A stretch of 63,980 nucleotides of DNA, counting the filler, from Hausera hauseri (lineage: Eukaryota): assembly GCA_046269625.1 (NCBI GenBank). It is 13 parts of 13 records of this genome, joined end to end, with 100 filler letters (N's around TTAATTAATTAA, not from the genome) between each part and the next. Parts side by side here need not be neighbours in the genome. Positions count along the whole stretch, not along the records: positions 52,107 to 59,773 come from JBJURY010001792.1; 12 more parts are not named here. One strand, given 5' to 3'. The notes beneath the pieces are model-generated. The model saw only the letters and a program-made list of their open reading frames with translations, did no database searches and was not told the DNA's origin. The position numbers were made by a program, and so were the translations under genes. Below are positions 1 through 63,980 of the stretch, piece after piece (the first letter of the stretch is position 1; each line of letters opens with the position of its first letter).

Positions 1-816
1 CATCTCTTTTTTAATAAATTTCAATCCATGCTGATCCGAAATTAATATAGTAGGTGTAGAGTGTTCTGATACATCCTCACGTGTCCTTGAATTGGTTTCT
101 GATTTGTCCACATATCGCTTTCCCGTAGTCTAATTGAACTTCAGTTCTTCAATTTTAATAAAATTACAATTTCTTCCAGATGGAGGTTCCCATATTATGA
201 GAGAACTTCTAAAAGCACAGGTCCCGTCTTGTAAATGACATTTTTGATTCTCTGTATATAGTTTGGTGACACTATGGAACATTACCTTTTGTGATCGCAT
301 TTCCAATTCGTAAAAATCCACAACCACTACGTTTGCCTCTAATCCTTTTCCGTTGTCGTATTCTGCTCTATTACAATGTCCACTATGTATATCCAATATT
401 CCGGCCACTATTTTGTATGCCCTGATTATTTTTCCTGGCTGCATCTCTAATTGCATACTGTCCCATTGTATTCTTCTAGTTTCCTTGGCTTGCTTGCAAT
501 GTTGGAATTCTAAGTTCATTGGAATTAATGGAGTCGTTGGTTTAATTATAGATGAGTGTCCATGAACCAACCCACAGTGAAAAATACTACGCGATCGTCT
601 CAGCATACATTCCATTTCGTCTAGCGATATTAATTCTTGTTGCTGATACAGGAAGTAATACTTCTCTTTTGTCTCTAACTTGTGTGGTCTGGCATCTTCA
701 CATACTTCCAGATCCATTAGGGAATATCTCTGCCCTAGCTTAAACTTATCGCAGTCGTAGACAGTTACAGCACCTATATGCTTAATTAGCATTATCAAGG
801 TGAGTAAGCTAATTAG
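1..816 (-). pseudogene. Chuvirus-like glycoprotein, N-terminal half with internal signal peptide
   Basis: Hydrophobic WLISLLTLIMLIKHIGA then VYDCDKFKLGQRYSLMDLEVC. Cys pattern aligns with 57674 onward (AYDCSKPKEGQKYSLDDLEKC; SIIKPTTP vs EIIEPTTP). Frame continues past the TAG at 130-132 to the contig end. Confidence 0.8.
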
Positions 817-1539
817 CCAGTTCGATTCATTTTTCCAGCATCCAACGTCCGCCGTTGTCAAATTACGTAACATATCGTCGAGTTTATTTCTGTTTCGTCT
901 GTCTTCTTCGCTGTCAAGTAGTCTTGACCAATTTACTTCGTAGGGCAATCTTCTCGCTGCTTTTCATGTTAAGCTTACCGCTCTATTGATTTCGCTCTCC
1001 CGGTTAGGGTTTATCTTGACAGCCAAGTATAGTAGTACTTTTCTCAACTCTTCATTGGTATTTTCTACCATGATCCTTTCTATTACCTATTCGTCGGTTA
1101 AGTTACGTTTTGCTAGTTTAAAACGTAAACTTCTCATCATTCTAGCTGCTTCGAAAATTATCTTTTCCTTATCATCTAATGCATCATCTCGAAGGCTCGA
1201 ATAATTTACAATTCGTATTAAATTCTTCATTAACTCGCTTAATTCCTCATTGTTTGTACTGGAGTCGGAATCAATATCTGTCTCAGTTCTCTAATCAATT
1301 CTCCATTATAGTCAACTTCTTCACGCGTTTTCTTAGGTCTACCCATTGGACGTTACAGCTTTTGGCCCTTATTGGTTATTTCACTCGGTGGTACTAAATT
1401 TATATCATATTGTTCCTTATCTTTATCCGTTTGTAAATACTCAAAATTCATTGCAGCATCTCGGAATTCCATAATTTGTCCTATGCATTGCTCTGTCTTG
1501 GCCTTACGCGTGACTTCCTCTTTTGTCTGTTTATTAGAT

Positions 1540-1756
1540 ATTGTTATTACTATGAGGTTTGTTTCGTCGGGGATAATCCCGTCGTCTATTAATTGTTCTA
1601 GGTCGTCGAGTATTCTACCTCTAAAGTAGAATCTGTAATTTAGCTCGTTTGTTTCACCATTGTTTATCAACCTTTCTCTTATATCTTTTACATAGGAATA
1701 GGTAGTTAATTCGCATTCTTTTCATCCATCCACTCGGATGATATCATTACTTTCAT
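1540..1756 (-). pseudogene. Ubiquitin-like (beta-grasp) domain within the retroelement polyprotein
   Basis: Across one frameshift it reads MKVMISSEWMDE/ECELTTYSYVKDIRERLINNGETNELNYRFYFRGRILDDLEQLIDDGIIPDETNLIVITIS, matching ubiquitin MQIFVK...DTIENVKAKI...[20 protein letters not shown]. No C-terminal GG. Confidence 0.7.
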
Positions 1757-2459
1757 CGCTACCTCAGGTTTAGTCCTTAATATTTTAGCATATTTTTTAT
1801 TAAAAATTTCGGCACCGTGCTATAAATTATGTTCTCACTAGATAATTTAGTTAAAGTTGGAATAAGTTGTCTTAGTCTATTTTCAGTAATATTTACGTTA
1901 ATTAGTTCAACCAAATCTTTTTCAGTTAGCGCTGAATCCAGAAGCATTTCCACATTGAATCTCCTGTCTTGCGGACATGTTTCTATTTCGTTTAGCTGTA
2001 CTGGAGTCATAGGTTTTTCCGGCAAGTATTTCGTAGAAGTATGCATCCCATTTTGGTTCGTTACTGACCTCGGGAAGTCCAGTATCTATCCCAATTGTTT
2101 TTGGTCTCTGTACATTTTCCCTAATTTCTTTCAATCTTGGTTGTATTTCCTTCATCTGCGTAGTCGAAAAACCAACTCCATTTCCGCAGCCATATTGAAT
2201 CATTTTCAGTAATTCCCCAAATTCGTTAGAGTCGATGAGCCCCTTTTGGTGATAATCTGTTAATTCGATGATTACATCCTTTTGACATCTCTGCACAAAT
2301 TCTCGTTTATTTTTAATCTCTGATTCGGCAAAGGCATATTTGTTTCGATAGGCTTCAAGCTCTTTTGTTATCTCATCTAACCTTGTCGCTCTTTATTTCG
2401 TTTTGATACATGTTTCTTCTACTTTCTGTATCTTGGGCATCAATTGCCTCATCTTTTCG

Positions 2460-3842
2460 TCACTCATACATCTTATTTATAATCTTTGAGTCAGGGTCCA
2501 TTGCATCCGACAACTTCTTTACGAAATTGTATTCCTGGAAACTAAAATGTGGGTCATTTCTTATTTTTGTCAACGTGGTATGGAAATTCTGATCCGATCC
2601 GGCCATCCATTTTTGTGGTTTATGCAAGACTTTTATTACGTCGGTTAGCATTTCTCGATGTCCTGGACAAATGTCTAAGATTTCAATGTCTTGTACAGAA
2701 ATTTCGTCGATCGGTTTTCCTGTTAAGTATTGGACCCATTCTAGTCGGACAATCCTTAACTTTGAATTTACATCGTAAATCATATTCCGTTTTCCCGTAA
2801 AGTTCGTCTCTTCGATCAGTTTGTAGATTTCCTCTTCCATCATCAACGCTTCTCGTTCCTTTTCCATAAATTTCAGTCGTCGTAATGCTTCGAATTGAGT
2901 GCGAATGTCTATTTCTATCCGCACTGTGCCTAAATCATGTGCACTTTCCTCTAGATGCTTCTTTACCATTGGTTCGCTTTGAGGAAATTCCTTCTTTCGA
3001 TCTTCTACTAATTTGGTTAATCGCGTTATTAGTTCAGACCACTCCGGCAGTTGATTTGCGATTATCGGTTTTGCCATTATAGCCTTATCTAGAATCTTAT
3101 ATGCATCTTCTAACTCATTGTCTGGTCCTCTTAGGAAATTCATAATCCAGCCGGCATAACTGAATTCATTTTTATATTCGTCCAAATCTATAGTACAGGC
3201 TTTCACTATGTATTTGGTTTCTTCGTTATTTGGAGACATAATTCGGTTTTTCAAACTATAAATCTGTACTCGCTTTTCATTCTCTATCTTAATCCGATTT
3301 TCTAGGTTTGTATATTTTTTAGGTGTAGCAAATGCAATTTTTATCATCTCCATCAAGGAAGGAATATCTATTGGGCCTATACCCGATATTTCTAAATCGA
3401 TATTGCTTCGATGGTTAACCGGTTTTTCCCTAAGCCGATTAATCACTGCATTCCGGATTTCGTCCATCATACGTTCTATATTACGGACTACTCTCTTCAG
3501 TTTTGGTTTGGCTTCTAAGGTAGATAATAACGTTTGAGCTTTCGTAACTTTTACATCGACACTATCATCGTTTTTACTCCATCCTTCCGAAAATTCTACT
3601 CCGCTTTCAGTCCATGATTCTAATTCCTGCTTCCATTTTAACAACGTTTCGGTTGATACTTATTCGGGTTGTTTTAAGTTGATTGCTTCTTCAAGCTTAC
3701 CTTTACTGTGTAATTTTAGGATTTTGTATAATCTCTCCGCATATTGTTGTTCTTTTCCGGATATATCTACTTGTTCGCTGATCTGCTTGAGTCTTTCTAA
3801 ATTTTGCTGCAGTATTTCTCGATTGTGGTATCTAATTCTCAT
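2460..3842 (-). pseudogene. Long charged, probably helical region of unknown function in the retroelement polyprotein
   Basis: 394-aa open frame plus an upstream 60-aa piece, E/K/I-rich, no recognisable motif. Confidence 0.5.
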
Positions 3843-4066
3843 TCTTTTTATCTTGTTGGCGTTTTTCCATGAACGTCGGACGTTCCATTGTTTTGGGTCG
3901 AACTAATCGATGTTCACCGTTTTTTCCTCAATAGTGGAAAGTGGGCAAATTTTGTTAATTTCGTTTCTGGTGTATTCAAACTATGGTCCACGTTACTTTC
4001 TACAACGATGTTCGGATTCTCTTTTTCTTCATTTTTCTTTCTACTTATTTTGGAGCGTGACCGACT

Positions 4067-15450: not shown

Positions 15451-16559
15451 GTCCGATCCACCCCGTAGGCGAAAGTGGAGAGTGAGGTGGATGATTGGGG
15501 AGGAAAAGGAAGAAAGCTGGTCATGGACGTTAAGTATAGAACATGATACGAGAGATAAAAGTCGGAGGAGTGGAGTGGAAGGATAGATGTGTGCAGGCGA
15601 TGTAAAGTATCTCTGTGTTGCACTGAAGGTATAGAAGTGTATATTATTGAAAAAGACAAACAGGGATAAGGGATGTGGTACAGAGGGGCCGAGCACGCTT
15701 GGTCCCTCAGTCCGACAATTCATTGGTAGCACAAATAAAAAAAATAATTGTAGTCCAATTAAAATTACTTTGAATTTGACTTTGTGCGTTTTCTTGGTTT
15801 CTTTCTTTGGCAAGAATTTCTCCGCCTTTTCCATGTATGAGGCATCGCCACAACTTTGAGATAGAATGCTGTTCAGAGCTTTATTTTTGACAATTTTGTC
15901 ACAGAGAGCTTTAGAACGAATATCAGTATTTCTAAGAGCAGTCGTAGTGTTGATATTAACTGCAGGCCTGTGATCCTTCAATATTTGTATGAGTGGATGT
16001 TTCTCTGCATTGTTTAACTACAAAGTGAAAATATAACAACTGAATTGAACAAATTAAAATATCTTGGATCAGTGTTGTTATTGAGTTTGATGGCTGGGCA
16101 ATTGTAAATAAACTGAATAAAAAGCTGATCACTCAGAGCTCTGGTGTAATTAAGATTCAGAAAATTGCTTGAAATTAAACTTTCGACAGACGCAAAAGGT
16201 TCCTTTATAAAACGACAAATAGCAATATGAAGACATCGGAATTCCCTAAAGAGAGTAACATGACCATAGTACATGGTCATCATCAGAATTTTCCGAAAAT
16301 CCATCGATAACAGTCAACGTTTGATGCTCGGATGTTGTGTCGTGTTTGATGATAAAATATTCGTTGCCCAACGATATGTTGGTACCGCATGGTGTTTCAA
16401 TCGGATTGTGCCACCAATGAGGATTTATAAAAGGATTCAGAAAAAGGATATTCTTTATCCAAAGTCATTCATGAATTTCCGGCAGCGCACGTGACAATTT
16501 GAATACTCCGAATCAAATAATCAACGATAAAAATACTGGCCTGATATTCCTTTTTAGCA

Positions 16560-16975
16560 TTTTTGCGAAACAATGGTTTCAGTGACGGATGTGATTTTGC
16601 TGCCAAGGCTCCTGGGGCTTTATCAACGAACATCGAATTGAATACATCTTCTAATTCACTATTCATCACAAGACCTTTTATGGCGTTCTGTAAGTTGATA
16701 AGCGTCATTCTAACAAAAGAAATAAAACGAGTAAATCTAATTAAATCGTGTCGCAGAACCTTCATTGGGTCCACTCCAGGAGAAAGAACAAATGTCAGAG
16801 GCGAACAGCGATTGGAATCATTAAAAGAACTCTTAAGATCAAATATAGGATAATCAATATATGTTTGGCCAGGATTTTCAACAACAAAGGTTTGAACAGC
16901 TGGTATAATTGTATCTGGCCTAATACACCTAAGAATAGCCAATCAATCGAAACCTTTAAGAGATACCAAATGGCC
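16560..16975 (-). pseudogene. Axonemal dynein heavy chain fragment (DNAH3/7/12-like), internally deleted
   Basis: ILRCIRPD..PAVQTFV...FDLKSSFNDSNRCSPLTFVLSPGVDPM is joined to VLRHDLIRF..LINLQNAIKGLVMNSELEDVFNSM..KSHPSLKPL. In-frame stop upstream, TTTTCAG acceptor near 16976. Confidence 0.85.
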
Positions 16976-19364: not shown

Positions 19365-20830
19365 TAACGCTGAAGCAGTCTGTCTCCATAATTGCACTCC
19401 ATCAACTGTTATAGCGTGAATCCTTCGTCGAGCGTTAATCCTGTTCGTCACTAAGAACACCTACGTTTTTCGGGGAGGAAATCCAAATGCGATTGGAGGA
19501 GATGAATTTTCAGCAACATGTTGCAGCCCTGGCATCTGTACGTGTCAATGCAATGCTCTACAACTTGGACATAATTAGCAGATTTCTTATTTGCAAGGAA
19601 ATTGGCTATGACCAGCTTGAACGCCACCCATGCATCCTTTTCAGTACCACTCAACATGTCTTGAAAACGTCTTTCATTGATGAGGTTATTTATGGACATG
19701 AACACGCCTTCCTTCACATTCGCATCACTAACTTTCGGAAACTTGTTGCGTAAGTACTGAAATGCATCGGTTTTGCTATCTATTGACTTCACGAAATTTT
19801 GCATCAGTCCCAACTTGATATGAAGCGGTGGCATGAGAACTTTGTCACGCTGAACCAACGGCACATGAAGGAGGTTTTTACTTCCTGGCTGCATTCTGTC
19901 CCTGACTGGCCAATTTCTTTTTGAGTAGTGGTGTTCTTTAACTCTGCGTTCCACTTGCATATGAAGCAGCAGTACTTGGTATATACTTGGTATATTACCG
20001 CAGATACTTAATTTGTACTCACGATAACGTATTTTTTCCATAAGTACTGACATTTTTTCATATATCTGCTTCATGTACGTAGAATATCCGACTGATAATG
20101 ACGCTTCTATTTCAATTGTGCAGCAATACCGCTTTTAAGCTAGACTTCGACGAATCGATGAACAGTCGCCATTTTTCAACTTGGTGCTCGACTCCAAGGC
20201 ATGACAGAAGTTCATTGACATTCCTGCAGTAGCAAAAACTATCATTCATGTCAAAGTATTGAACAAGGTCATTATGTCTGTGCCGATAAATTGCTGTAAT
20301 TGTACCTAGAGCAAGCAAATGAAATTCGTTTAGACGTGAACCTAGCAGTTCAGCTTGACCTTTCGTAAGTGCCATGTTTCTCACAAGGTCTCAAAGTTCA
20401 TAATTAATCAAATGAATTTCGTTCTCTGCTTGGTAGTCAGAATCTGAGTCATTAGCAGGCAACGAGATGTCACTTTCTTCTTTCTTTTCTTCATGAACTG
20501 TGTATTCTGTTGGTGGTTTCAGTAGTGGGCGGGATACAGGATCGTGTGGAATTGGTTCTGACACTGATGGAAACTTCACATGAGAACTACTTTTGAAGGA
20601 GAATTCAGTAATATAAGTCATGCATAAATAACAATCCATAATGTGATTAGTCGGTTCACGCCATATCATATGAACTCCGAATGGTATGTGACTGTTCTTC
20701 TTTGCCTTCCTGATCCAAACTCGCAAGTTGCATGAACACGTTAAGCAGGTAAACCGTAGTGCCCACGACATACCGACGTCCACCTTGGAATCAAAGTATA
20801 ATTCGTATGATTGCGCATACAATTTTTATT
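19365..20830 (-). mobile_element. Decayed DNA transposase, probably Chapaev3-like (CMC superfamily)
   Basis: WREPTNHIMDCYLC, WRLFIDSSKSSLKAVLLHN, PPLHIKLGLMQNFVK, KIHLLQSHLDFLPE..VLSDEQ. The transposase call is firm; the superfamily name is from memory. Confidence 0.75.
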
Positions 20831-37869: not shown

Positions 37870-38617
37870 TTTAATTCTGTGGCCTTAGGCCGACATACTG
37901 GACATGTTGTTTTCCCGTTGTCGAGTGTCTATTTCTCTAGGCAGTCTCGACAATATTTATGACGGCAGTTATTGTTATCTAATACCACATATTCTTGCCT
38001 CAAATTTGCATCACATACGAGGCATTCACTATCTTCTTTGTCCCAATCTTCTCTATCTAAATAGACTTGAATGATCAGTTCGATGGGTTCAAATACAAGG
38101 CCGTCACCATCTTGGTATAAGTACCCATGAAGTACCTTCTGTTTAGGGTTTATTGAACTTTTATGCGGGTCACAATCTACCTGAATCAGGGTCCAGTGCG
38201 CTATAAGGTCTTTATCTAAATCAGGAATCCTCCCTTCTATTTTATATTTCTGATATTGTTTCTTCAGAAATATTCGGATTTGCTTGTCCACGAGAACTAT
38301 TATCTTCCCTGTCCTTTTTGATCAAAAAATTGATGTAAGGTAGGTTCCAAGTTTAGTATTCTCCAATACACAAGTGTTTTCAAAAACCTCTCTGGCCGGG
38401 GCAAGTTTAATGAAGAACATAGCTTCCTTTATTATCTTTTTGCTGTAGTATTCGGTAGTTACCAACATTCTGGGAAAATCTTGGGTTGTTTTAAAATATG
38501 CGTCCTCTTTATTTCTTTTTTCTATTAAAGCGTTAAATTCCGTTGTAATGGGACTCCTAATTCCCTTCTTTAACCTTTCTATGTTCTGCGAAGTACTTGG
38601 TTGATTTTGTTGGTTCT
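37870..38617 (-). pseudogene. ORF ending in a C3HC4 RING finger (probable retroelement cargo)
   Basis: CLVC-x14-CRHKYCRDCLEK*TLDNGKTTCPVCR at 38024-37890. The TAG sits at the conserved RING Trp position (TGG to TAG). Confidence 0.8.
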
Positions 38618-52106: not shown

Positions 52107-54560
52107 GTCCGTATTAAATTGAATGTACGGTTGAAGCCACTTTGACTGACTGAATTGCAAAGCCCTGTGGATTTTTTTAATCTGCACGCCATGTCGCACT
52201 GCCTGCTGTAAAGAAACATAATGGCTGATATATCGTTTTCGATTGTTTAAGTGCAACAATAATTTTTAAGATTTTCCATTTGGTGATGGCAGTTTTGATT
52301 CCTGCAGGAACGGTAGCTGATCATGTTCGTCAATCAGTAATATGGGTGAACTACGTCAACCTCCAAAATGTACCCTGTTTCTGCATCTAGTGGAATAGCC
52401 ATGATATCACTTTGACTGAAATAATCTGCCCATTGGAAATTTCCATAGGGTAAGCTGCATCACATAGCTTAGACATAGAGATTATTTGCGCCAAGGTACA
52501 TGATGAATGACGATGGTATGTATGAATTACTTGACATATTCCTCCTTGTATTGCCCCCTCCAACATCAATATCATATCGTAGTCCTTCAACGCTTGCAGC
52601 TGAACTCCTGTGTATTTCAACATTGCTGACTGTCATTCCGGGAGCCGCAAAAAATCAGCAGGATCAACTTTCTTGTTTGCCATTGTCACATTTTGGAAAC
52701 TCTCGAAAACATCAGCTAGAAGAATCACATAAGTTAGTAGATATACATCACTGTAATCACCCAGTGTCTTACATTTGAATGAGCTCCAAACGTTTTGAGC
52801 ATGTGCATAATCTTCATCGCTAATGCTCGAATGCGAAAATTTGTTGTAAAACATTTACAGAGGTGGTAATCTGGTTTCATCCAATTTGTTTATGACGTGA
52901 TGTAGTCATCGGGAAAACACCATTTCGCTTAACTCAGTAAAATGTGTCCATCTAGAAGTATCTTCTGGTCTCCTTTAGTTCACTATCTTGCAGATTTTTC
53001 ACCAGTTTATCCAAGCTGTTGCTCATAAGTTTTAGACTGTTTTTAAAACGCAGCTGCATCGTTCCAAAATGCAGTGAAAGTAATATACTTTTCTTTACTG
53101 TGTGGAATAACATCAATTTTTCCATTCACATTTCGCAGTTCTCTGATAATAAAATGTGAATCGTATCCACTTAAGTTGTGAAATATTCCGGGGATAAATT
53201 TAACAGTTGGACCACGGTATTTTCCCCTGATGTGACAGTGATCTCGAACTTTGTGATTTTCAGCGGTAAATTGTTTTGCACACAAGTAGCAAACTGAAAC
53301 ATTTTTCCATTGGGTTTCCTTAATTGCTGTAATATTTATTTTTTTCGGTTTCATATCTTCGATACTGTGAGCAAGTTCTTCCAACCGTGTCATAAAATTG
53401 ATGCTGCATTTCGGGTCCTGTATAGGTATGGCTCGTTTGCAAATCCTTTTGAAAACATACAAAAAGACATTACCTCATGCAATTGATAGGCAGTATTACT
53501 TGAATGATCCTTGTTTGGGTTACGTGTGTGGATTGGAGTCAAGATAGACTCAAAATCACAGTAAATAACGAACGGTACTCGTAGAATTTTTTTATATTCC
53601 TTAAAATAGACGATATCCTCCTGGGGAAAATCTAACTTGACAGATTTTTTCTCATTGAAACACAATTTATGTTCCTTTAGTTTGCCTTCAGCTAATTTTC
53701 CATGTTGATCATCAAAATGTGAAAAACACGTCTTGCATATTAATATACCATTCATACTCTTCGTGATCTGTGATCTAATTAACCGACCAATATTTTTTAT
53801 CTACACATAGTGGCTTTTTTCACCATTACTTAATAACAGCAAATCCCGATGGTCTGATTTTTCTTCATTGCAAACCTTGAGTGGATATATTTTATTCTTT
53901 TTATCAATCGCAAAAATATTGATAGATATATCATTGAAATTTTCAAATTTCCTGATATCAAGAAACGATGAAGGGTATGTTATACAAGAAAAATTATATG
54001 GATGATCAAGGTTTGTGTATTTGTCAACCCGATGTGGATTTGTGTCTAAAAATTTCGATAGAATTGAATACTTGAAGCATAAATCATCATCAATGTTTTG
54101 TACATTAATGCATGCCTTTTATCTTCAATCCATTGAAGCAGCTTAATGTATGATGATCCACGCATTGGGGAATACTTGTGAATCCTCATGTTGAGTCCTT
54201 TGATGTTCGAAAGAGTCCATCCGCTTTTCTTAGCATGGCTTTTTTCGGCTTCAGTTACCAATTTCGTAAACTCTCCATCAAAGAAATCGGTAATTTCTGA
54301 GGCATGCAGGATAGGCTTGCTTTTTGTTTTGAAAGAACTTTTAGATAGTTCACCATCCTTTTCACAGTCAGCCTCGATAACTAGGTTAACTTTCAGGGCA
54401 TTGATTTCTGATAGATTTTCATTTAAGGCTGTGGTTGCATCCGCTTTTGAAAATTCCAAAAATTTAGGGAGACTCTTTTGACCGGTTGCAGGAATAAAAT
54501 GGGTAACAATTTTACGAAAAAGTTACATCGAATATATTTTATTTTTGATAAAGAAATTGT
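52107..54560 (-). pseudogene. polB: Protein-primed PolB (Polinton type, different subfamily) with EndoVII-like insertion
   Basis: SGWTL..KYSPMRGSSYIKL, PFVIYCDFESIL (ExoI), CYLC..KVRDHCHIRGKYRG, FHNLSGYDSHFII (ExoII), LGDYSDVYL..LLADVFESF, KIHRALQFSQSKWLQPYIQFNT. Confidence 0.92.
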
Positions 54561-54894: not shown

Positions 54895-54912
54895 TGGTGC
54901 CGTGACCCGGGA
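54895..54912 (+). promoter_or_regulatory. Primer-binding site complementary to the tRNA-His 3' end
   Basis: TGGTGCCGTGACCCGGGA vs tRNA-His PBS TGGTGCCGTGACTCGGAT, located right after the LTR-end CA. Confidence 0.85.
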
Positions 54913-55018
54913 CCTTTAGATAAAACCTTTAGAGAAGCAGAAGTAGTTAGTATTCAAAATTACAACTACGAAGGGAACACCTTACCAAGTAGAACCAGAC
55001 GATAATCCGCTCTTTGGA

Positions 55019-56041
55019 TTGGAATTCATAAATCATTTGAGTGAAGAAGACGAAGATAGAATGACCCGGAATGATCATGTAGTAGAGCAGGTGATCCAGT
55101 CCAATGCTAACTTCACCCTGCCAATGAAAAAATTCTCAGAGAAGGAGGACGTACAGGACTTCATCATGGAATACGAGGTATACTCGAGAAGTTTTGGATG
55201 GACGGACCAACAACTAATGGAGAGGTTACGCCTTTACCTGAAGGGAACAGCCCTAACAATCTACTTCCAGATGCCTGAAGATGATAAGAAGGATTGGAAA
55301 ACCGTCGAAGAAAAGTTGCCACAGAAGTTTTTAGTTGATCCCTCTGGAAAAGGAAGGATAGAAGAGTTTATGCGAAGAAGGCAACGGAAAGATGAGACGG
55401 TCCAGGATTTTGTGTGTGCACTGAAGAAATTGGCAGCTAGGGCATATCCTGATGCAACGATAAGAGGTAATGCGTTACTGGCTTAATTCCAATAGAGACT
55501 CGAAGGGAAGTTAAGAACAATAATCCTGCAGGCTGATCCACCCACATTTCAAGAAGCCATAAGGAAGGAACGCAAAGCAGAACGGGACGAAGAAATATAC
55601 AGGTGGAATAAACCCAAAAGATATAAAAATTACGACGATAACCGAAAGAATTATAGTACACAAAAGTATGAACGGTATAACAGAAACAGAAGCCCTTCGC
55701 AAACTTCAGCTGCGGAAGCTGAGTCCGACGCTGAAAAGAAGGTACGATTCAAACTAAAGAACGATGGTGAAAATGCATTTTATAAGAAGAAATCCCCCAC
55801 AAAGGACGGAAGAAAGTTGCCTAATATAGATGCTGAAGGAAGACTAAAATGTTTTAATTGTAACAAGTATGATCACATAGCAAAAATATGTAGATCACGA
55901 AAAAGGAAATCCTCAAAACCTTATAAGCAAAAGAAAAAGGAATATACCTCAGAAACGTCGGACGAGTCATACGATCAAGAGCATAAAACGGAAGAAAGCA
56001 ATAGTGAGCATGAAAGAAAGAATAAAAGAAGAAAAGTGTAA
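55019..56041 (+). pseudogene. gag: Gag (capsid plus CCHC zinc knuckle)
   Basis: FSEKEDVQDFI..GW..LRLYLKGTA..RRQRKDETVQDF..PPTFQEAI and CFNCNKYDHIAKIC, all in one frame with internal stops. Confidence 0.92.
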
Positions 56042-56657
56042 ATTGCATTAATGATATACTATCTCAACGTATGAGAACGCAACTGGATATTGAGGTAAAA
56101 GACTATAAAACCCAGCAAAAGAGATTAAAAGAAAATAGTATTTACGTAGTGGAAGAGAAACCGAAAGGCAGAAAGTCGCGTCAAGGAGGAAAGAAGAGTA
56201 ATAAAAAAATAATCGATGATATCGAATCAAGAGAAACCTCCGTAGAGAGGAGTAACCCAGAAAGGGTAAAAGAATAAAATAAGGACGAAAGAAGAGTAAA
56301 CTCAGTACACCCAAGAGTAGCCCCAGTACACTGGAAACAGAACCAGAGGAAAGCCAACCTACAAAAATTTTCGATGAAACCGTTATTGAACAAGTGATAC
56401 ACGATATAGAAGTAGATTTAGATGCCGAAGATGACATAATCCAAGCAGTGATTGCTATAGACCCTGAAAATATAATAGATGTAAAGGAAGCAACAAGTAC
56501 AATATTAAAGTTAATAGATAATAAGGTATGTACTGATAAGATAAATGAAGTACTATTTTAATTATTACTACTCGCCCACGATACGAGTCCGATAAGAGAA
56601 ATAGCACGGACAATATTGGCCAGGGCAGCTGAAGATGAGAAAGGAAGAAGCGAAACA

Positions 56658-56882
56658 GTAAGAATAATATTAAAAGAAAGAAACCAAGATATGAGGGTTA
56701 TAAGAATGAATGAAACAGACGATGTATTGACATTACGAGAAAAGATTGGAGAACTAGAACCGTTTTATAAGGAAAAGACATATGGATTAATCTTTTATGG
56801 CAGAACACTATACAGCTACGACAATTTGTTACGAGTGGGATGTAGGAGTGAAAACTGTAACCCAATTACGATAACAGAGATA
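56658..56882 (+). pseudogene. Ubiquitin-like domain within the retroelement polyprotein
   Basis: VRIILKERNQDMRVIRMNETDDVLTLREKI..YGLIFYGRTLYSYDNLLRVG aligns nearly gap-free with ubiquitin MQIFVK..EPSDTIENVKAKI..RLIFAGKQLEDGRTLSDYN. Confidence 0.75.
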
Positions 56883-57601
56883 CACCCCAATGCAAGAGCA
56901 GAAGCAACGATAGATAACATCATAAGGGAACTGGAACCTCAAGAGGTTGACGAACAACCATTAGGCAATACACAGGATGTTACGGTGCCAACAGAAGCCT
57001 GAAGGAGAGGAAGACCAAGAGGAACAAAGATAAGTGACATTCGGAATAAACGGGATGGAAATGAAGAAATCGTGCGACGTCTATTATTGGCAGGAACAGG
57101 TACAACGCCAGAATCTATAGATATAGATCCTTTGTTAAGAAAGTTGTTAGCCAAATTACACACGTCATTTGCATCGTTTAATATGCAAGTGGCAGTCCCT
57201 GACGAATTGTTACAGACGTTACGTAACGGCATGTTGAAAATTAGTAGGCAGTTTTATAAAAATATTGGAGAGGAACGAATCAATAAATTACATGAGCAAG
57301 ACTCATTAGAAAAGATGTTTGCGACAGGAATTACGCAAGAAAAGTTTAAACAGCTATAGCCTATTTATTATATAAAGTGATTGTGATCAATCACCAGACC
57401 CAAAATTTAGAAGAAATTGATCGAAGTATTAAAGCAACGGTTAAGGCTTTGAAAGATACGATAGAAAGTTGAGTCCAGTGTAGAGGCGGGTGATTGGAAT
57501 GTCTTACAAAAAATGTAAGAGCAGAAGGATACGGAGGACTAACAGAAACGCCAACCGTCGCACAATCAAACCAACACACGCCAAAACAAGGCATAACGGG
57601 A

Positions 57602-59322
57602 ATGACGATGATGATGATCTTTCAGTTAATTTTAATAACATCGTTACTGATGCCGAAGGCAATGGGAATAGTAGCATACGATTGCTCGAAACCTAAGGAA
57701 GGACAGAAGTATTCCTTAGATGATCTAGAAAAATGTCCCAAAGCTGACCCAGAACAATTAACGACGACCAGCGGTCACAGATATTGGATTTATCAGGAAT
57801 CTGAATTTATAAAAGTCAAGGTCAGGGAATGTTATGTAAAGAAATCTTTTTCCCTGTTTAACTGTGCGTATTATTCCAGAAACTCTGAAATAATTGAACC
57901 AACAACACCATTTGAACCAATAATAATATCGCGTGCAGAATGCCAAGATGCCTTTAAAATCGGAGTGATAACGATACAAAATGTACAGATATCAGCAGTA
58001 CGAAATAAGATAAAATATACTCGAATATTTAGAGCGGGAAGAATAGGTAAAACGAGGGAAGGCACCTGCAAAGGGGTAGATTACGATGTGGAAGGATCGA
58101 TAGCACCAAGAACAGTGGCAATTGAAGATTATCAAGTTGAATTAAAGGAATACAAAGGATTATTAGACTCCCAGACCAAACTCATGACGACAATGAGCGA
58201 GTGCGAATATGAAAGTGGCGAATTCGATACTAGCGCATTCAAAATGACGTGGGAAGTAACTTCAAATAGATGTCATTTGACCCTGCTAAAAGAAGGAAAA
58301 TTCAATAAGACAGTGGGAAAAACAGGCGAAAAGGAAGCAACAACATACAAGGAAGGGATCAAAAAAGTAAAAATGACGGACGTCGCTACGATAGTCTATT
58401 CAGAAAATCCTGAAGAAATGATGCGATTTAAAAATACGGGAACAACGAATAAATGTGACGAAGAAATATCCAAAACTAATTATAAAGGTATTTATCTTTC
58501 ATCTAAAGCGATAGTACAAGCAAAGACAAAGATAGATAAAAAGGACATAAAGTTAACGCAATACTTTGATAACACGAATGAGTTTTTAATCAATTACGTT
58601 AGAATAGAAATTAGAAGTTTATATAGGAAAATAATAATGAACGAGTGCAAGTTAAACGATGAAATTATACGAAACAAGATGTCGTTAGTAATAATAAACC
58701 CTGATATGGTAGCATCATTGATGCCATTTGGTGACGGAGTAATCGGAAGAGTAACTAGGATATTACTAGACGTCAATGAAAAACCAGTTCGGCTGGATAA
58801 CTGTACCTTTAATATGGCACCCATGTTTAAACTAGATGAGAAGAGGTGAATCAGGATGCTAAATTTTAATAAATGTTAAATTTGATAAATTTACAAAGAA
58901 ATCAAAAATTCAAACCACTTACGGGAATATCTCAAGGAGGAATTTACACACAACAAAATTTAGAAGATTATCGACGAATGTTGTTATTCCCCCAACGGAG
59001 GCAAAGAGTAATAACGGAACTAACAAGAAGAGTAATATGGGACGGCGAAGGCTCAACACAATGGGAAAACCTGATGAGAAAAGATTATTTAAAGAAAGTT
59101 ACACGGAATATCATGGAAAAGATGTGGGGGAAATTTTTGTATTTTGGCCAAGCAGCCTCAGGATTTCTCGCGATATATTTTATTACTACTGCGATACGAG
59201 TGATATTCACTGCTATTAGCAAGGTTTATGGCATACACTCAGAAGTAGGTTGTTCTTGGAAGATTCTGATAGTAGTAATTACGGCCGTAGCTAGTTGTTT
59301 TCTAGCGAAACACGATGCTTAA
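57602..59322 (+). pseudogene. env: Chuvirus-like envelope glycoprotein (signal peptide, ectodomain, TM), decayed
   Basis: Signal MTMMMIFQLILITSLLMPKAMG then IVAYDC, Cys-rich ectodomain, GGIYTQ..LLFP, WGKFLYFGQ and TM segments. Stops and a 41-codon deletion relative to the copy at 28202 onward. Confidence 0.88.
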
Positions 59323-59873
59323 TGGAAAAAGAAAATGTTTAAAACAAGAAATAAAAAGAATTCTCCGTATAGTAATGTAAACAATAAAAACGATGATGAT
59401 GATGATTTCGACGTCAAGAAAAAAAGTGATAAATATATAAGGAGATGGAGACATTTTTTACTAAAACCACGAAAACAAAAATATAAACAAAAGTTCATAG
59501 TTGACTAACCGCAGTTAAATCCAGTAGACGAATATCACGAACGAGTTTATATCGAACAAACAATAACAAATCCATTAGCTCTTCAATATTCAAGGCATGA
59601 GATGTACCTTATGCATCAAATACTACAAATAAAGCAGAATTATGATGAAAACCTCACACCGTACAATCGCGAGCCCACTTGCAAAACAACGGATAAAAAT
59701 GAGCCACAATCACCTTTAAGGCCAGAGATAGATATAGAAGTAAACGGATATCCAATAACGGCCTTGTTGAATANNNNNNNNNNNNNNNNNNNNNNNNNNN
59801 NNNNNNNNNNNNNNNNNTTAATTAATTAANNNNNNNNNNNNNNNNNNNNNNNNNNNNNNNNNNNNNNNNNNNN

Positions 59874-62800
59874 TATACTTGCTGAATGTGACTCTGCATG
59901 TTTTGTGTTTATGCTGTGTGTTTGCTTGCAGAGGTTGAAGTTGGGGAAAAAATGGTCTAATTTCATGGTACGTGTTGTGTCATGCAAAGACGAGTCAGAA
60001 AGAAGAGAAGAAGAAAAAGGTGAAGGAGGAAGAGAGATTGTTGAAGACGGATTACTAAAAGTATTCAAGAGAGTGTTAGAAGACGAAGAAATGATAAAAG
60101 GTGTAGTGGCGGATGAAGGAAGAGAGATGATGTTATTTTCGAAGTTTTCAATTACAATTTGTCCATTTATTGTACGGTTATCCATTGATAGCCAGAATTC
60201 GTCAGAAAATAAAACTATTACAATAATACATCCAACATCAATAGAAAGTAAATTGAAATCGTCTAGAAGGATTTTGTAATTAAAGAAAATATAAACTTGA
60301 CAAACAGTTCATTTTGGGATTATTCATGACGGTATTTACAGAGATAACGTTCAAATTGAAATCAATTAGAAAATAACATTAAATGAGTTACAGTAATTCG
60401 ATAGCTGCCAGACCATGACAATCAAATAGTAATGACTTTTACCTGGAACAAATCAGGAATTCGAAATAAAAGACTATCAATTAGAGTGCAAAACGGCGAA
60501 TGAAACAGGAACTGAATCGACTTAAAAAACTGATAAAATTGAGACAGAGGTATTAGTAGAGAGCGGAAGACAGATAGGGATAGAAGTAAAGAGAAAAGAA
60601 AGTTGCGAAGCGGAAATGAAGGGGGTAAAAGACGATGTGTGAGAAGAAAGGGAGAAAGAAAGCGCCGAAGATGAGGAAGGTGAGGAAGGAGAAAGAGAGA
60701 CGAGAGAGAAAATGGCGAAAAGGGACAAAGTGGAAAAGAGCAAGAAGATGAAGAAGGAGAAGGAAAGTAGTTGAAAGGAGGTATGCGAGAGGTTGGAATG
60801 ATAAAAGGGGTAGATGGAGAGATTGGTGAAGTCGAAGTGGTGTTGGATGGCGGAAGTACTGTAAAAGGAGAAAGCAGGTTGTTATGAGGGGATGAAAGAG
60901 GTGTGAAAAGGCCTGGAGGTGCAAAATTGCGTGGAGAAAAAGAAGCTGAATTGTCAAAAGAAATTAAAGTAGAAGTCTTGGGAGAACGCGTAGGCAAAAG
61001 TGGATTAAGAAATTGAACAGAGATGGAAGGTGAATTGTTGGATTGCTGTGCGTCGTGTAAAGATATTGGTGGAGAAGTAGTTTCGATGGGAGACGTAGCG
61101 TCAATGAAGAAAGCCGGCTTAGCGTTGTTGATGTGGACTGTTACTTCTTTGTCGTCCTTGAGAATGATGAGGTTGTGAGTGTAAAAAAATTACTTTGTAA
61201 GGGTCAACATACTGAGGTTGAAAACCACACGGCGTCTGATTCTTCAGCCATACAAACTTGGCAGTATATATCGTCGGGTATGTAAGGTTTATTTCCGTGT
61301 AAAAGTCTACAAAATGAGTCTTTGATGATCACAACGAAGTATCTCTGAGCCGCTTTTATGGTTTCGTCTGTAGGAATATTGTCCAACTCAGCCAGCTCGA
61401 ATAATGGTTTGATAGAAGTACCAAACAATGCTTCTGCAGGTGAACAGCCTGTAGATGTAGATGATGTGTTCCGCTAGCCAAGCAGAACGTATGGAAGGAG
61501 TGTATTCCAACTGCGATTGGACTCAGCAAGGATTTTGAGGGACGTTTTCATCGTTCGGTGAAAGCGTTCGAGAAGGCTATTCGATTGAGGATGATATGGT
61601 GACGTATGAATGTGGTTAATTCCAATCGATTGACAAGAGCTTTAAACAGGTTGGATTCTAACTGTGGACCTTGGTCCGAAATTATGTGACGAGATGATCC
61701 AAACCTGCTGATCCAAGTGCGGATGAAAACGTCTACGATTGTTTCTGTGTTGGTGCTCCGAAGCGGGACAGACTTTGGCCATCGTGAGGAACGGTCCATC
61801 ATTGTTAGGATGAACTGATGGCCGTTGTCTACAGGTAATGGGACTACAAGGTCAATGTGAACAGATTCAAAATGAGACGTGCAGGAAAAATGATATAGTG
61901 GTGGCTTTAAGTGCTTAGTAACTTTGTACTTTTGGCATGCCACACACTGCCTAACCCATGTCTGCACGTCAGAGCGCATCGACGGCCATACTACTTGGCA
62001 TTGTAAGAGTCGAAAAGTGGCCTTGGAATCGAGATGATGCAACGAATAGATGTTGTTTAATGCTTCTTTTTGAAGCAATTCAAAAAGGATGACTTTAGAA
62101 TTATTAGGTATGTAGGTGTCAAAGGCCACACTGCCGATGGTTTTGCACAATTTGAAAGATTTAAGGATGTCAGGAGGTGGCTGGTTTTGTTGAAGTATGG
62201 ATTGAGGAAAATTTGGTGTAAAATCAATCGAGCTGATTGATCTGGACAAAATGTCAGCTACTAAATTGCCGACTCTGTTTAGGTGCTTAATTTCAAAACT
62301 AAATGTGTACAAATACGATATTTGCCTCTCCTGACGCGGAGAAGGAGATTTTATGGTGAGAACTTGACGCAAGGGCTTGTGATCCATTTGTATTGTAAAA
62401 GTTCGTGCTTAAAGTGTTTTACGACAAGGACCATTGCAAGCAACTCTCTGTCAAAGGTGGAATATCTTTGCTCTTGTGCCGTAAATTTTCGAGAAAAGAA
62501 TTCTAATAGCTCATGGGATCCATTTTTGACTTGATGAAGGACAGCACCTGCAGCTGTTATTGATGCATCCGTGGTTAAGAAGAGTTCTTCATGGGAGTCG
62601 AGATAGGCCAGGATTTCTACGGTTTTTAGATTATTTTTAAGGTGATCGAAAACGTTGAGTAGCTTAGCGGTCCATTAATGAGGCTGTTTTTTCCTGCCAG
62701 ACCTTAGTGATGCAAATGGACCGGTAAGAGTGGAGCAGTGTGGAACATACTTTTGAATGAAGTGCAAGGTTCCGAAAAAAGAACGCATCTCTGTGCATGT

Positions 62801-63980
62801 ACGTGGTAGCTGTATGTTTTTGAGCTGTGTGATGCGCTCTGACTGAGATGAATGTCCGGAGGAGTTAATAACATGTCCTAGGAAGTTGACCTTATGTTGA
62901 AAAAGGAGCATTTGGCGAAATTAATTTGCAAATTGTTTTGGTGCAAGAGCTGGAAGGTTAAACGTAAGTGTTCGGAGTGTTGTTTCGAGGAACATGATGT
63001 AATAAGGATATCATCGATATAATGATAAGCAAAGTCTAAACCTGAGAGAACTGTATCAATATGCCTTTGGAAGGTCTGGTAAGCACTACGGAGTCCAAAA
63101 GGCATGAAAAGGTATTCGAAAGGTGTAATGACAGCCGTTTTCGTAATGTCTGCTGGGGTCACCGGAATTTGGTTGTATGCTTTGTGTAAATCAATGCAGG
63201 AAAAAATGGTCGAACCATGGAGCATGTGAAGGATGTCGTTGATTAATGGTAGAAGGTAGGCATCCATTGTTGTTATGATGTTGAGTTGGCGATAACCACC
63301 ACATGGGCGAAAGGTGCCATCTTTTTTGGATCTTCTGATTATTCCTGATCTTTCCAGTTCGAGAAACTCAGCCTCCACTGCAGGTCTGCAACGAGACGAT
63401 AGCGGATGGACCTTTTGACGTATTGGTCTTTGATGTGCTGTTACTATGTGATGGAAGGTGCATTTAAGTGGTACGAATGATTTGTCCTTTTGCAACAGAC
63501 GTGTGCAGGAAGACGAAATATATTGCTGTAAGTCAGAGGGCAACAATGAAAAGTTTTCAGATGGTGTTGATGCATCGTGACTGGATGCAGTTAAGGTATG
63601 AGTTGTAGACGAGGTGTTATGACCAGGTGGTATTTGGTACAGGATGTTCGTGTTGAAGTTGGTGTTAGCAGATGTACTATCAGTAATAGGTGCCATGCAG
63701 TTGGCAATATCGTATTTGTTGCCGTAATGAAAATTTCTACATAATGAATGATTACAAAAATAATTCAAATCGGAAATCGCTTTCTTTAGTATTGACTTGC
63801 TGGAAGTGATCGCCCGGGTGGTCACCGAAATGCTGCTAATTTAATTAAAATTATTTCCGCTCTTTAAGGAACATCGGTTGCAGTCTACAAGTAAATTATA
63901 GTAGGACAGAAAGTCTGAACCCAATATAGGTGTGCGTACATTGGCTACTGTAAATTTCCAAGTGAATGTGTTTGGGAAAT
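59874..63980 (-). mobile_element. Ty3/Gypsy CsRn1-like pol remnant (PR end, RT, RH, IN, Ser/Pro-rich tail)
   Basis: PILGSDFL..LLVDC, DGTFRPCGGYRQLN, MPFGLRSA, YIDDIL, LTTDAS..GAVLHQ, DHKPL, NLVADILSR, CVACQKYK, HIDLVVPLP, SDQGPQ. Confidence 0.93.

Follow-up and report, generated by a model that had tools for sequence, protein, structure and literature searches.

The DNA analysed here ("the window") is a stretch of 63,980 nucleotides from Hausera hauseri, in which 13 short contigs are joined by spacers. The cassette of interest sits on one of these, the contig at 52107-59773 (JBJURY010001792.1). Its + strand carries, in order, a primer-binding-site-like stretch, a gag gene with a CCHC knuckle, a region with a ubiquitin-like (UBL) domain, a glycoprotein recognised by PF24664, and the start of a protease. 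The features are as follows, with the evidence in parentheses; the last lies on another contig.

54895..54912, + strand: primer-binding-site-like stretch that starts with TGG, upstream of gag, which we take to be of the tRNA-His type (sequence)
54947..56041, + strand: gag, capsid and nucleocapsid regions, with stops at 55484 and 55493 and a terminal stop at 56039 (tblastn with P0086 residues 16-356, 35% identity)
55850..55891, + strand: CCHC zinc knuckle of Gag (Pfam zf-CCHC, E 2.1e-4, above cut-off)
56427..56630, + strand: helical domain of ~70 residues, ahead of the UBL in the family, with an in-frame stop at 56559-56561 (family profile, alignment, model helices)
56658..56885, + strand: ubiquitin-like (beta-grasp) domain without a C-terminal di-glycine (profiles, model, fold matches)
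56889..56999, + strand: short helix and acidic linker, poorly conserved (9/49 identical to P0086)
57000..57002, + strand: in-frame stop codon that divides the UBL ORF from the hook; the same region is open in the intact relative P0086
57003..57023, + strand: AT-hook-like motif RRGRPRG (family retention; Pfam AT_hook below cut-off in three relatives)
57054..57505, + strand: putative Bcl-2-like helical domain split between two frames (57054-57347 and 57332-57505) and further broken by stop codons at 57470-57472 and 57491-57493 (P0086+P0041 profile)
57593..57673, + strand: hydrophobic stretch, predicted internal signal peptide of Env (hydropathy scan)
57674..59322, + strand: gene for a class III (gB/Monjiviricetes-type) fusion glycoprotein, broken (Pfam PF24664, E 2.2e-35 and 1.2e-27; tblastn)
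59713..59772, + strand: start of an aspartic protease, where the contig ends (translation; the equivalent stretch is PR in the sister contig)
1512..1923, - strand: second, divergent copy of the helical and UBL domains (found by a profile that leaves out the window's own rows, with E 1.4e-8 for the UBL part and 0.23 for the helical part)

A sequence-only reading of this DNA had placed a ubiquitin-like domain between Gag and the glycoprotein, and the motifs that it quoted are all found there, in one frame. The copy itself (the focal copy) is decayed and dead. Stop codons interrupt it at 55484, 55493, 56559, 57000, 57470 and 57491, several frame changes are found as well, and its env gene has suffered an internal deletion relative to the sister copy, a stop, and a change of frame. 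Contigs from two public sequencing runs span the whole stretch and carry many variants, the UBL included, as is expected for a multi-copy family; some single contigs from these runs have deletions that run through the helical and UBL domains. In both runs the 5' part of the focal contig (52107-54666) is covered far more deeply than the element, and this part is probably another repeat. A weak endonuclease VII-like match (E 0.0012) lies at 53046-53474 on the - strand.

The class of the element is seen by combining two contigs. A sister contig at 28202-33165 carries env DNA that is 78-82% identical to the focal env; there, the second half of Env is in frame with protease, RT and RNase H, and integrase follows. 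The same order (PR, RT, RH, IN) is found by Pfam in P0001 and P0002, two long polyproteins from other elements. Because the focal contig provides the Gag knuckle and the sister contig the Env-PR-RT-RH-IN order, the element is a gag-env-pol Ty3/gypsy (Metaviridae) element; the focal contig itself stops within the protease. PF24664 is located between the knuckle and the protease, which puts a class III Env between gag and pol, the arrangement that defines GAG-ENV-POL errantiviruses with a gB-type Env. Hydropathy finds two hydrophobic stretches behind Env in the window copies, versus one above threshold in four relatives, a mismatch that speaks against reading the membrane topology there firmly. 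By eye, the sister contig also has a dUTPase-like stretch between PR and RT, and its post-integrase frame ends, with the contig, in a hydrophobic, signal-like stretch.

The divergent copy at 1512..1923 is followed on its - strand by a GRP motif (~1329-1352) and then by an env that is 33% identical to the focal env. Ahead of it on the same strand (window 1-4066) is a 399-residue ORF (2460-3659) with no Pfam match. Elsewhere, the window holds another retroelement fragment with RT and integrase matches (59874-63980, - strand), fragments of a DNA polymerase B of the protein-primed type (PF03175, 7210-8309), which are presumably Polinton-like, a C-terminal fragment of dynein heavy chain (16472-16942, - strand, E 9e-12), and weak matches to a UBZ zinc finger (19454-20134, - strand) and to RING (37932-38321, - strand).

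The helical and ubiquitin-like unit

Taken alone, the UBL ORF matches Pfam ubiquitin with an E of 0.035. A family profile of six rows, searched against the PDB, returned ubiquitin-family chains in 60 of the 60 matches listed. An AlphaFold2 model of 56409-56897, calculated from a 22-row alignment with the focal copy first and an X at its stop codon, has a pLDDT of 92.9 and a pTM of 0.85, and displays helices followed by a beta-grasp. Here, the model is best taken as a property of the family; it does not imply that any protein comes from the dead focal copy. Under Foldseek and VIA-align, the second half of the model matches ISG15, ubiquitin, SUMO and others at ~1.4-1.7 Å over ~75 residues. As modelled, the UBL is a member of the beta-grasp superfamily (beta-beta-alpha-beta-beta-(alpha)-beta, ~75 residues), the fold by which the sequence-only reading had asked that its domain be checked. 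The pTM suggests, in turn, that the helical bundle and the UBL are packed against each other in a fixed way; together they are called the unit below.

These matches single out no UBL family: identities are ~10-20%, and none of the families ranks above the rest. UBLs that are not conjugated (ubiquilins, Rad23, FAT10, midnolin) are among the profile and fold matches. In the ESM Atlas, the best match to the UBL (0.90) is an unnamed cluster, with named clusters that are ubiquitin- or SUMO-like at 0.85-0.89, all to be taken as leads only. Fold searches with a 423-residue model of P0086 had only UBL-containing rows among the matches listed, so that neither the helical domain nor the putative Bcl-2-like domain received a fold match; for the model of 56409-56897, too, the UBL took up the fold lists. 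By eye, the helical part has a possible likeness to a TFIIS N-terminal (TND/IBD-like) domain; the TFIIS-N family was not among the Pfam matches listed for 24 alignment rows (25 of 42 families listed) or for 14 proteins, nor among those of a PDB search with P0048. Integral UBLs, such as those of ubiquilins, Rad23, Rad60/NIP45 (SUMO-like), SF3A1 and UHRF1, likewise hold a beta-grasp without a di-glycine inside a larger protein, and every one of these is found among the profile or fold matches; unlike them, the UBL here follows a helical bundle.

The unit recurs in intact relatives. Using the Env half of the sister copy as query, two long polyproteins (P0001 and P0002) were recovered among 345 candidates, and both, although found by Env alone, carry the unit ahead of Env. 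When the focal region is compared with P0001, the best BLAST match falls on the unit (E 2e-4), and 0 of 1000 shuffles reach its score; for P0002, 25 of 1000 do. Three more long polyproteins with the unit were recovered by a query that included it. In the intact relatives, the unit is part of Gag-Env-Pol polyproteins that have one frame for all genes. Thus, the co-occurrence of the UBL with Gag, Env and RT that the sequence-only reading had proposed to look for exists within single polyproteins, and the conservation that it required is found among the relatives. When the window's own sequences are left out of the family profile, the profile matches the focal copy at 56427-56912 with an E of 7.9e-12.

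A profile search of 1.84 billion representatives gave 184 matches; 22 of the 150 listed were examined, and 20 were kept as module-type. Gag (a capsid match or a knuckle) is present in 7 of these 20 and Env in 2, while 13 are short or have neither marker; P0174 is a doubtful member of the family. P0096 and P0177 were dropped as ordinary multi-ubiquitin-type proteins. The remaining 128 of the 150, nearly all of which have several stretches on the UBL half, are outside the family counts. The UBL ORF used directly as a query among longer proteins found none in 1679 candidates, which is weak evidence, and a back-translated pattern search from the family profile over JGI metagenome contigs gave 33 pattern matches, of which 0 were confirmed.

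The closest relative among those examined is P0086, which is 31% identical over 328 aligned cassette positions. Its frame is open from Gag via the unit, the hook and the putative Bcl-2-like domain into Env. A programmed frameshift between gag and the cassette is therefore unnecessary. Measured against P0001, the identities of four relatives across the helical part, the UBL and the linker are 78/71/46, 58/47/34, 57/48/30 and 28/28/17 per cent; the helical part and the UBL are better conserved than the linker behind them in all four. On the same scale, capsid, Env and RT, in those relatives that have them, are better conserved than the unit.

Several other features of the relatives may be recorded here. 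P0045 and P0048 each have two tandem units. After integrase, the C-terminal 500 residues of P0001, P0010 and P0011 form a second predicted membrane protein, with a signal-like stretch and a C-terminal helix; that of P0001 has many N-glycosylation sequons and no Pfam match. P0001, P0002, P0010, P0011 and P0044 have several aspartic-protease-like copies per polyprotein, whereas the sister copy in the window shows one. In four polyproteins, a D[TS]G motif is present three times, namely behind Env, ahead of RT and behind integrase, and P0044 has at least three protease-like stretches.

The hook motif and the domain behind it

The sequence-only reading had an AT-hook following the UBL. At 57003-57023, RRGRPRG does have the Gly-Arg-Pro core and basic flanks of an AT-hook, and the motif is conserved: 9 of 16 family rows have [RKP]GRP at a distance of 40-181 residues after the UBL, compared with 0.10 expected by shuffling. 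In the focal copy, however, the stop codon at 57000..57002 splits the two. As the rows are related, the nine occurrences show retention and not nine origins. The hook is missing from the other seven rows (P0001, P0010, P0011, P0012, P0067, P0071, P0088), among which are four of the five long polyproteins found by the Env and unit queries. Matches to Pfam AT_hook, seen in three relatives, are all below cut-off (best E 0.027). The motif is likely to bind AT-rich DNA; it could instead be a nuclear localisation signal only.

Behind the hook is a second domain, which the sequence-only reading overlooked. The focal copy, P0086 and P0041 have in common a helical region with what we take to be the BH1- and BH2-like motifs of a Bcl-2-like domain. 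Across it, 0 of 1000 shuffles reach the alignment score of P0086 with P0041, and a profile of these two matches both focal pieces (E 1.7e-15 and 1.1e-13). Pfam Bcl-2 matches P0086 with an E of 0.016 over profile positions 6-100 of 100, at 16.1 bits versus a cut-off of 31.4; such matches, below cut-off, occur in 2 of 24 alignment rows. PDB matches include six BCL-2 chains (E 1.5-2.8); with P0041 and P0086 as single-sequence queries, no Bcl-2 match came back from the PDB, and the ESM Atlas gave no usable match to this part of P0041. In the model of P0086, the region is all-helical, with a pLDDT of ~70-85. The Bcl-2-like profile matches 2 of 26 family proteins, many of the 26 being short or ending early. 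The predicted Env signal peptide starts ~35 residues after the BH2-like motif. These results hint, weakly, that the domain is Bcl-2-like; it is located where published Burro elements have BCL2.

With no hook in 7 of 16 rows and a match to the Bcl-2-like profile in 2 of 26 proteins, the unit is the sole part of the cassette that is universal, and the parts need not act together.

Burro elements and errantiviruses

The layout of the cassette has, for the most part, been published already for flatworm elements. In 2019, Arkhipova and Yushenova described planarian Burro elements with Gag, MATH, Ubi2/SUMO-like and BCL2 domains, an in-frame Env, protease and RT (PMC6431247). In the sections of that review on these elements, Burro1-4 / GYPSM1 of Schmidtea mediterranea and a Burro-like element of Dugesia tigrina are given a CCHC Gag, a Ubi2/SUMO-like and a BCL2-like domain, Env, protease, a dUTPase-like stretch and RT; in these giant planarian elements, the Ubi2/SUMO-like domain had been recognised by comparing profiles, and Env was related to the fusion proteins of mononegaviruses (PMC6431247). 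The authors propose there that the elements meddle with host apoptosis and ubiquitination (PMC6431247). The novelty implied when the sequence-only reading called the UBL no standard domain of LTR elements does not survive this comparison, as the 2019 text already places such a domain, Ubi2/SUMO-like, after Gag and before the in-frame Env of Burro (PMC6431247).

The element described here shares with Burro the knuckle, the UBL, the candidate Bcl-2-like domain, the PF24664 Env and the protease, and the Env of its sister contig is in frame with PR-RT-RH. The Burro order, in which a Ubi2/SUMO-like domain is followed by a BCL2-like domain and then by an in-frame Env, is that of the focal copy and also of P0086, whose frame is open; the Bcl-2 call in it is weak. 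However, ORF1 of Burro, as reviewed, has ~4,900-5,100 residues, with extras of the MATH/BIR/ankyrin/Smc type ahead of the UBL (PMC6431247). The present element is far more compact, with one knuckle, ~180 codons from the knuckle to the helical domain in the focal copy, and ~175 residues in P0086. Pfam found no MATH, BIR, ankyrin or midasin-like match in the focal ORFs scanned between the knuckle and the helical domain, and the long relatives, at 3,036-4,029 residues, have no Pfam matches of the MATH/BIR/ankyrin/Smc type. Strict Burro elements are described as exceeding 30 kb in total, with very long LTRs and a planarian host (PMC6431247); the focal contig has 7.7 kb. Compared by description only, the element departs from a strict Burro in insert size and in extra domains, yet would work like one. 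The divergent element at 1-4066 may be a larger, more Burro-like relative, given the long insert ahead of its unit.

Chary and Hayashi (2026) reported GAG-ENV-POL elements with a gB-type Env in Platyhelminthes, Nematoda and Bryozoa (PMC13524379). With their errantiviruses, and with Smed_errantivirus_1-6 in particular, the present element has in common the gag-env-pol order and a class III fusion protein; by eye, motifs of its Env ectodomain recur in the six Smed rows, and much less in one bryozoan row (PMC13524379), a likeness that makes a flatworm host likely. In the portions available, the annotation of that paper is confined to Gag, Env and Pol; the word "ubiquitin" is absent from its main text and supplements, and "AT-hook" from its main text (PMC13524379). 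Likewise, the available text of the Burro review has 0 occurrences of AT-hook, and no helical companion of the UBL is named in its section 7 (PMC6431247); a word search of the accessible part of PMC6338049 gave 0 matches. In the retroelement literature, those mentions of AT-hooks that were found concern retroviruses only. No description of the paired helical domain or of the hook was found in the texts covered; the primary reports on such elements may hold one.

Possible roles of the cassette

Processing of the pestivirus type requires a C-terminal di-glycine, and UBLs of the Rad23 type bind their receptors via an Ile44-equivalent patch; Rad23- and midnolin-type UBLs deliver proteins for proteasomal degradation. 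Ubiquitin fused to Gag, which in the published constructs has the ubiquitin fold without a di-glycine behind Gag, as here, can replace a late domain, and this depends on Leu8 and Ile44 (PMC2958808). The element family does not keep these residues. At the Ile44-equivalent, Ile is found in 3 of 23 rows, and a charged or polar residue in 12; at the Leu8-equivalent, 2 of 22 rows have Leu, and both places are aliphatic in a single row of the 22 (positions assigned by aligning to ubiquitin with HMMER, with a possible shift of about one residue in the Leu8 loop). Conservation in the UBL is highest at an acidic motif and at a glycine close to its end, and not at the Ile44 column. The focal copy belongs to the three rows that have Ile there, and this accounts for its marked likeness to ubiquitin. 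The absence of a C-terminal GG noted in the sequence-only reading extends to the family: no di-glycine occurs within 32 residues after the conserved motif in any of 23 UBL domains, and the residues after the last UBL strand are not conserved. This argues against cleavage by ubiquitin proteases. With the di-glycine and the Leu8/Ile44 patch lost family-wide, ubiquitin mimicry in budding or processing is unlikely.

Each of the roles that the sequence-only reading had suggested for the UBL is touched by this. Were the UBL to recruit ESCRT by mimicking ubiquitin on Gag, it would fill a gap, since PTAP/PPxY/YPxL-type motifs occur in the first 1000 residues of only 2 of 21 relatives, most of which thus have no classical late domain; a fused ubiquitin can do this work (PMC2958808), and the focal copy has its Ile. 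However, the near-universal loss of the aliphatic pair, a charged or polar Ile44 column in about half of the rows, and a predicted packing on the helical bundle that differs from a freely tethered ubiquitin leave this role quite improbable. (One relative, P0194, has a PPxY motif directly behind its UBL, at residue 847.) Cleavage behind the UBL by a cellular ubiquitin or UBL protease, freeing the downstream part as in pestiviruses, is very improbable: the UBL does lie inside a polyprotein, and pestivirus polyprotein fragments with captured ubiquitin are among the viral fold matches, but the C-terminal signal is nowhere present, what follows the last strand drifts, and the element encodes its own protease. 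Targeting to the proteasome or p97, by which part of a one-to-one polyprotein would be degraded or partially processed to tune Gag:Pol, gains from the Gag:Pol ratio problem that a single frame for all genes would pose, and from the non-conjugatable UBLs among the matches. These ubiquilin/Rad23-type matches tie, however, with ubiquitin, SUMO and ISG15, so that no UBL family is singled out, and the patch for receptors is not conserved; we regard such targeting as rather unlikely.

Two further readings do without any ubiquitin-like activity. That the UBL is a captured host domain without function, a neutral passenger, would fit a dead focal copy and single contigs deleted through the unit, but scarcely fits a unit whose frame stays open in elements that share only ~40% identity in Env, better conserved than the adjacent linker in four of four comparisons, and confidently predicted to fold; this is the least probable of the readings. 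The rigid unit could also be a structural adaptor, a matrix-like spacer or lattice that couples capsid to membrane during assembly. This idea arises because there is little sequence ahead of the capsid (it begins ~20-60 residues from the N-terminus in P0001, P0041, P0050, P0071 and P0086) and because the only membrane anchor, the Env signal peptide, is behind Gag; in 5 of 5 long polyproteins, the unit is the one conserved folded piece between the knuckle and that signal peptide. Against it are a linker to the signal peptide of ~200 to 360 residues, poorly conserved, and the tandem units of P0045 and P0048. Such an adaptor is unlikely, if worth keeping in mind.

The reading that we favour, and consider moderately probable, is that a compact Gag-Env-Pol Ty3/gypsy element of the Burro-like kind has left a broken copy of its cassette at this locus. 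The cassette would be one for control of the host: the helical domain and the UBL would be a non-conjugatable docking unit, the AT-hook would bind AT-rich DNA, and the Bcl-2-like domain would dampen cell death. Here, the bundle and the UBL, as one predicted rigid unit, would dock host or element proteins via a surface other than the Ile44 patch. Because the cassette is N-terminal to the internal signal peptide of Env, it would be expected to stay on the cytosolic side, and it is likely to be released from the nucleocapsid by the protease of the element. Once freed, a unit with its basic hook might act in the nucleus or on chromatin, with the hook either binding AT-rich DNA or serving as a nuclear signal. 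The Bcl-2-like domain, where present, may be held at the membrane by the Env signal peptide, much as cellular Bcl-2 proteins are by their tail anchor, and may there dampen apoptosis.

A different use of the same parts is unlikely, though conceivable by analogy: the unit and the hook, cut from Gag, would form a chromatin tether, the hook resting on AT-rich host DNA while the unit docks capsid or integrase. MLV p12 tethers retroviral complexes to chromatin, and the host factor LEDGF, a chromatin tether for retroviruses, combines AT-hooks with an integrase-binding bundle of the TFIIS-N type. If the tether reading were true, a conserved and undescribed pair of domains would mark a whole clade of enveloped gypsy elements, and the signal peptide of Env would have a second job, as tail anchor for a Bcl-2 that a retroelement encodes.

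The confidently predicted fold and about two dozen relatives confirm the Ubi2/SUMO-like domain of the 2019 review, and compact elements carry it too. The present analysis adds to this the helical domain that is paired with the UBL, the retention of the hook, and arguments against a mimicry of ubiquitin. A small, rigid unit of ~160 residues is thereby defined, which bears on the proposal that such elements manipulate the ubiquitin and apoptosis systems of their hosts.
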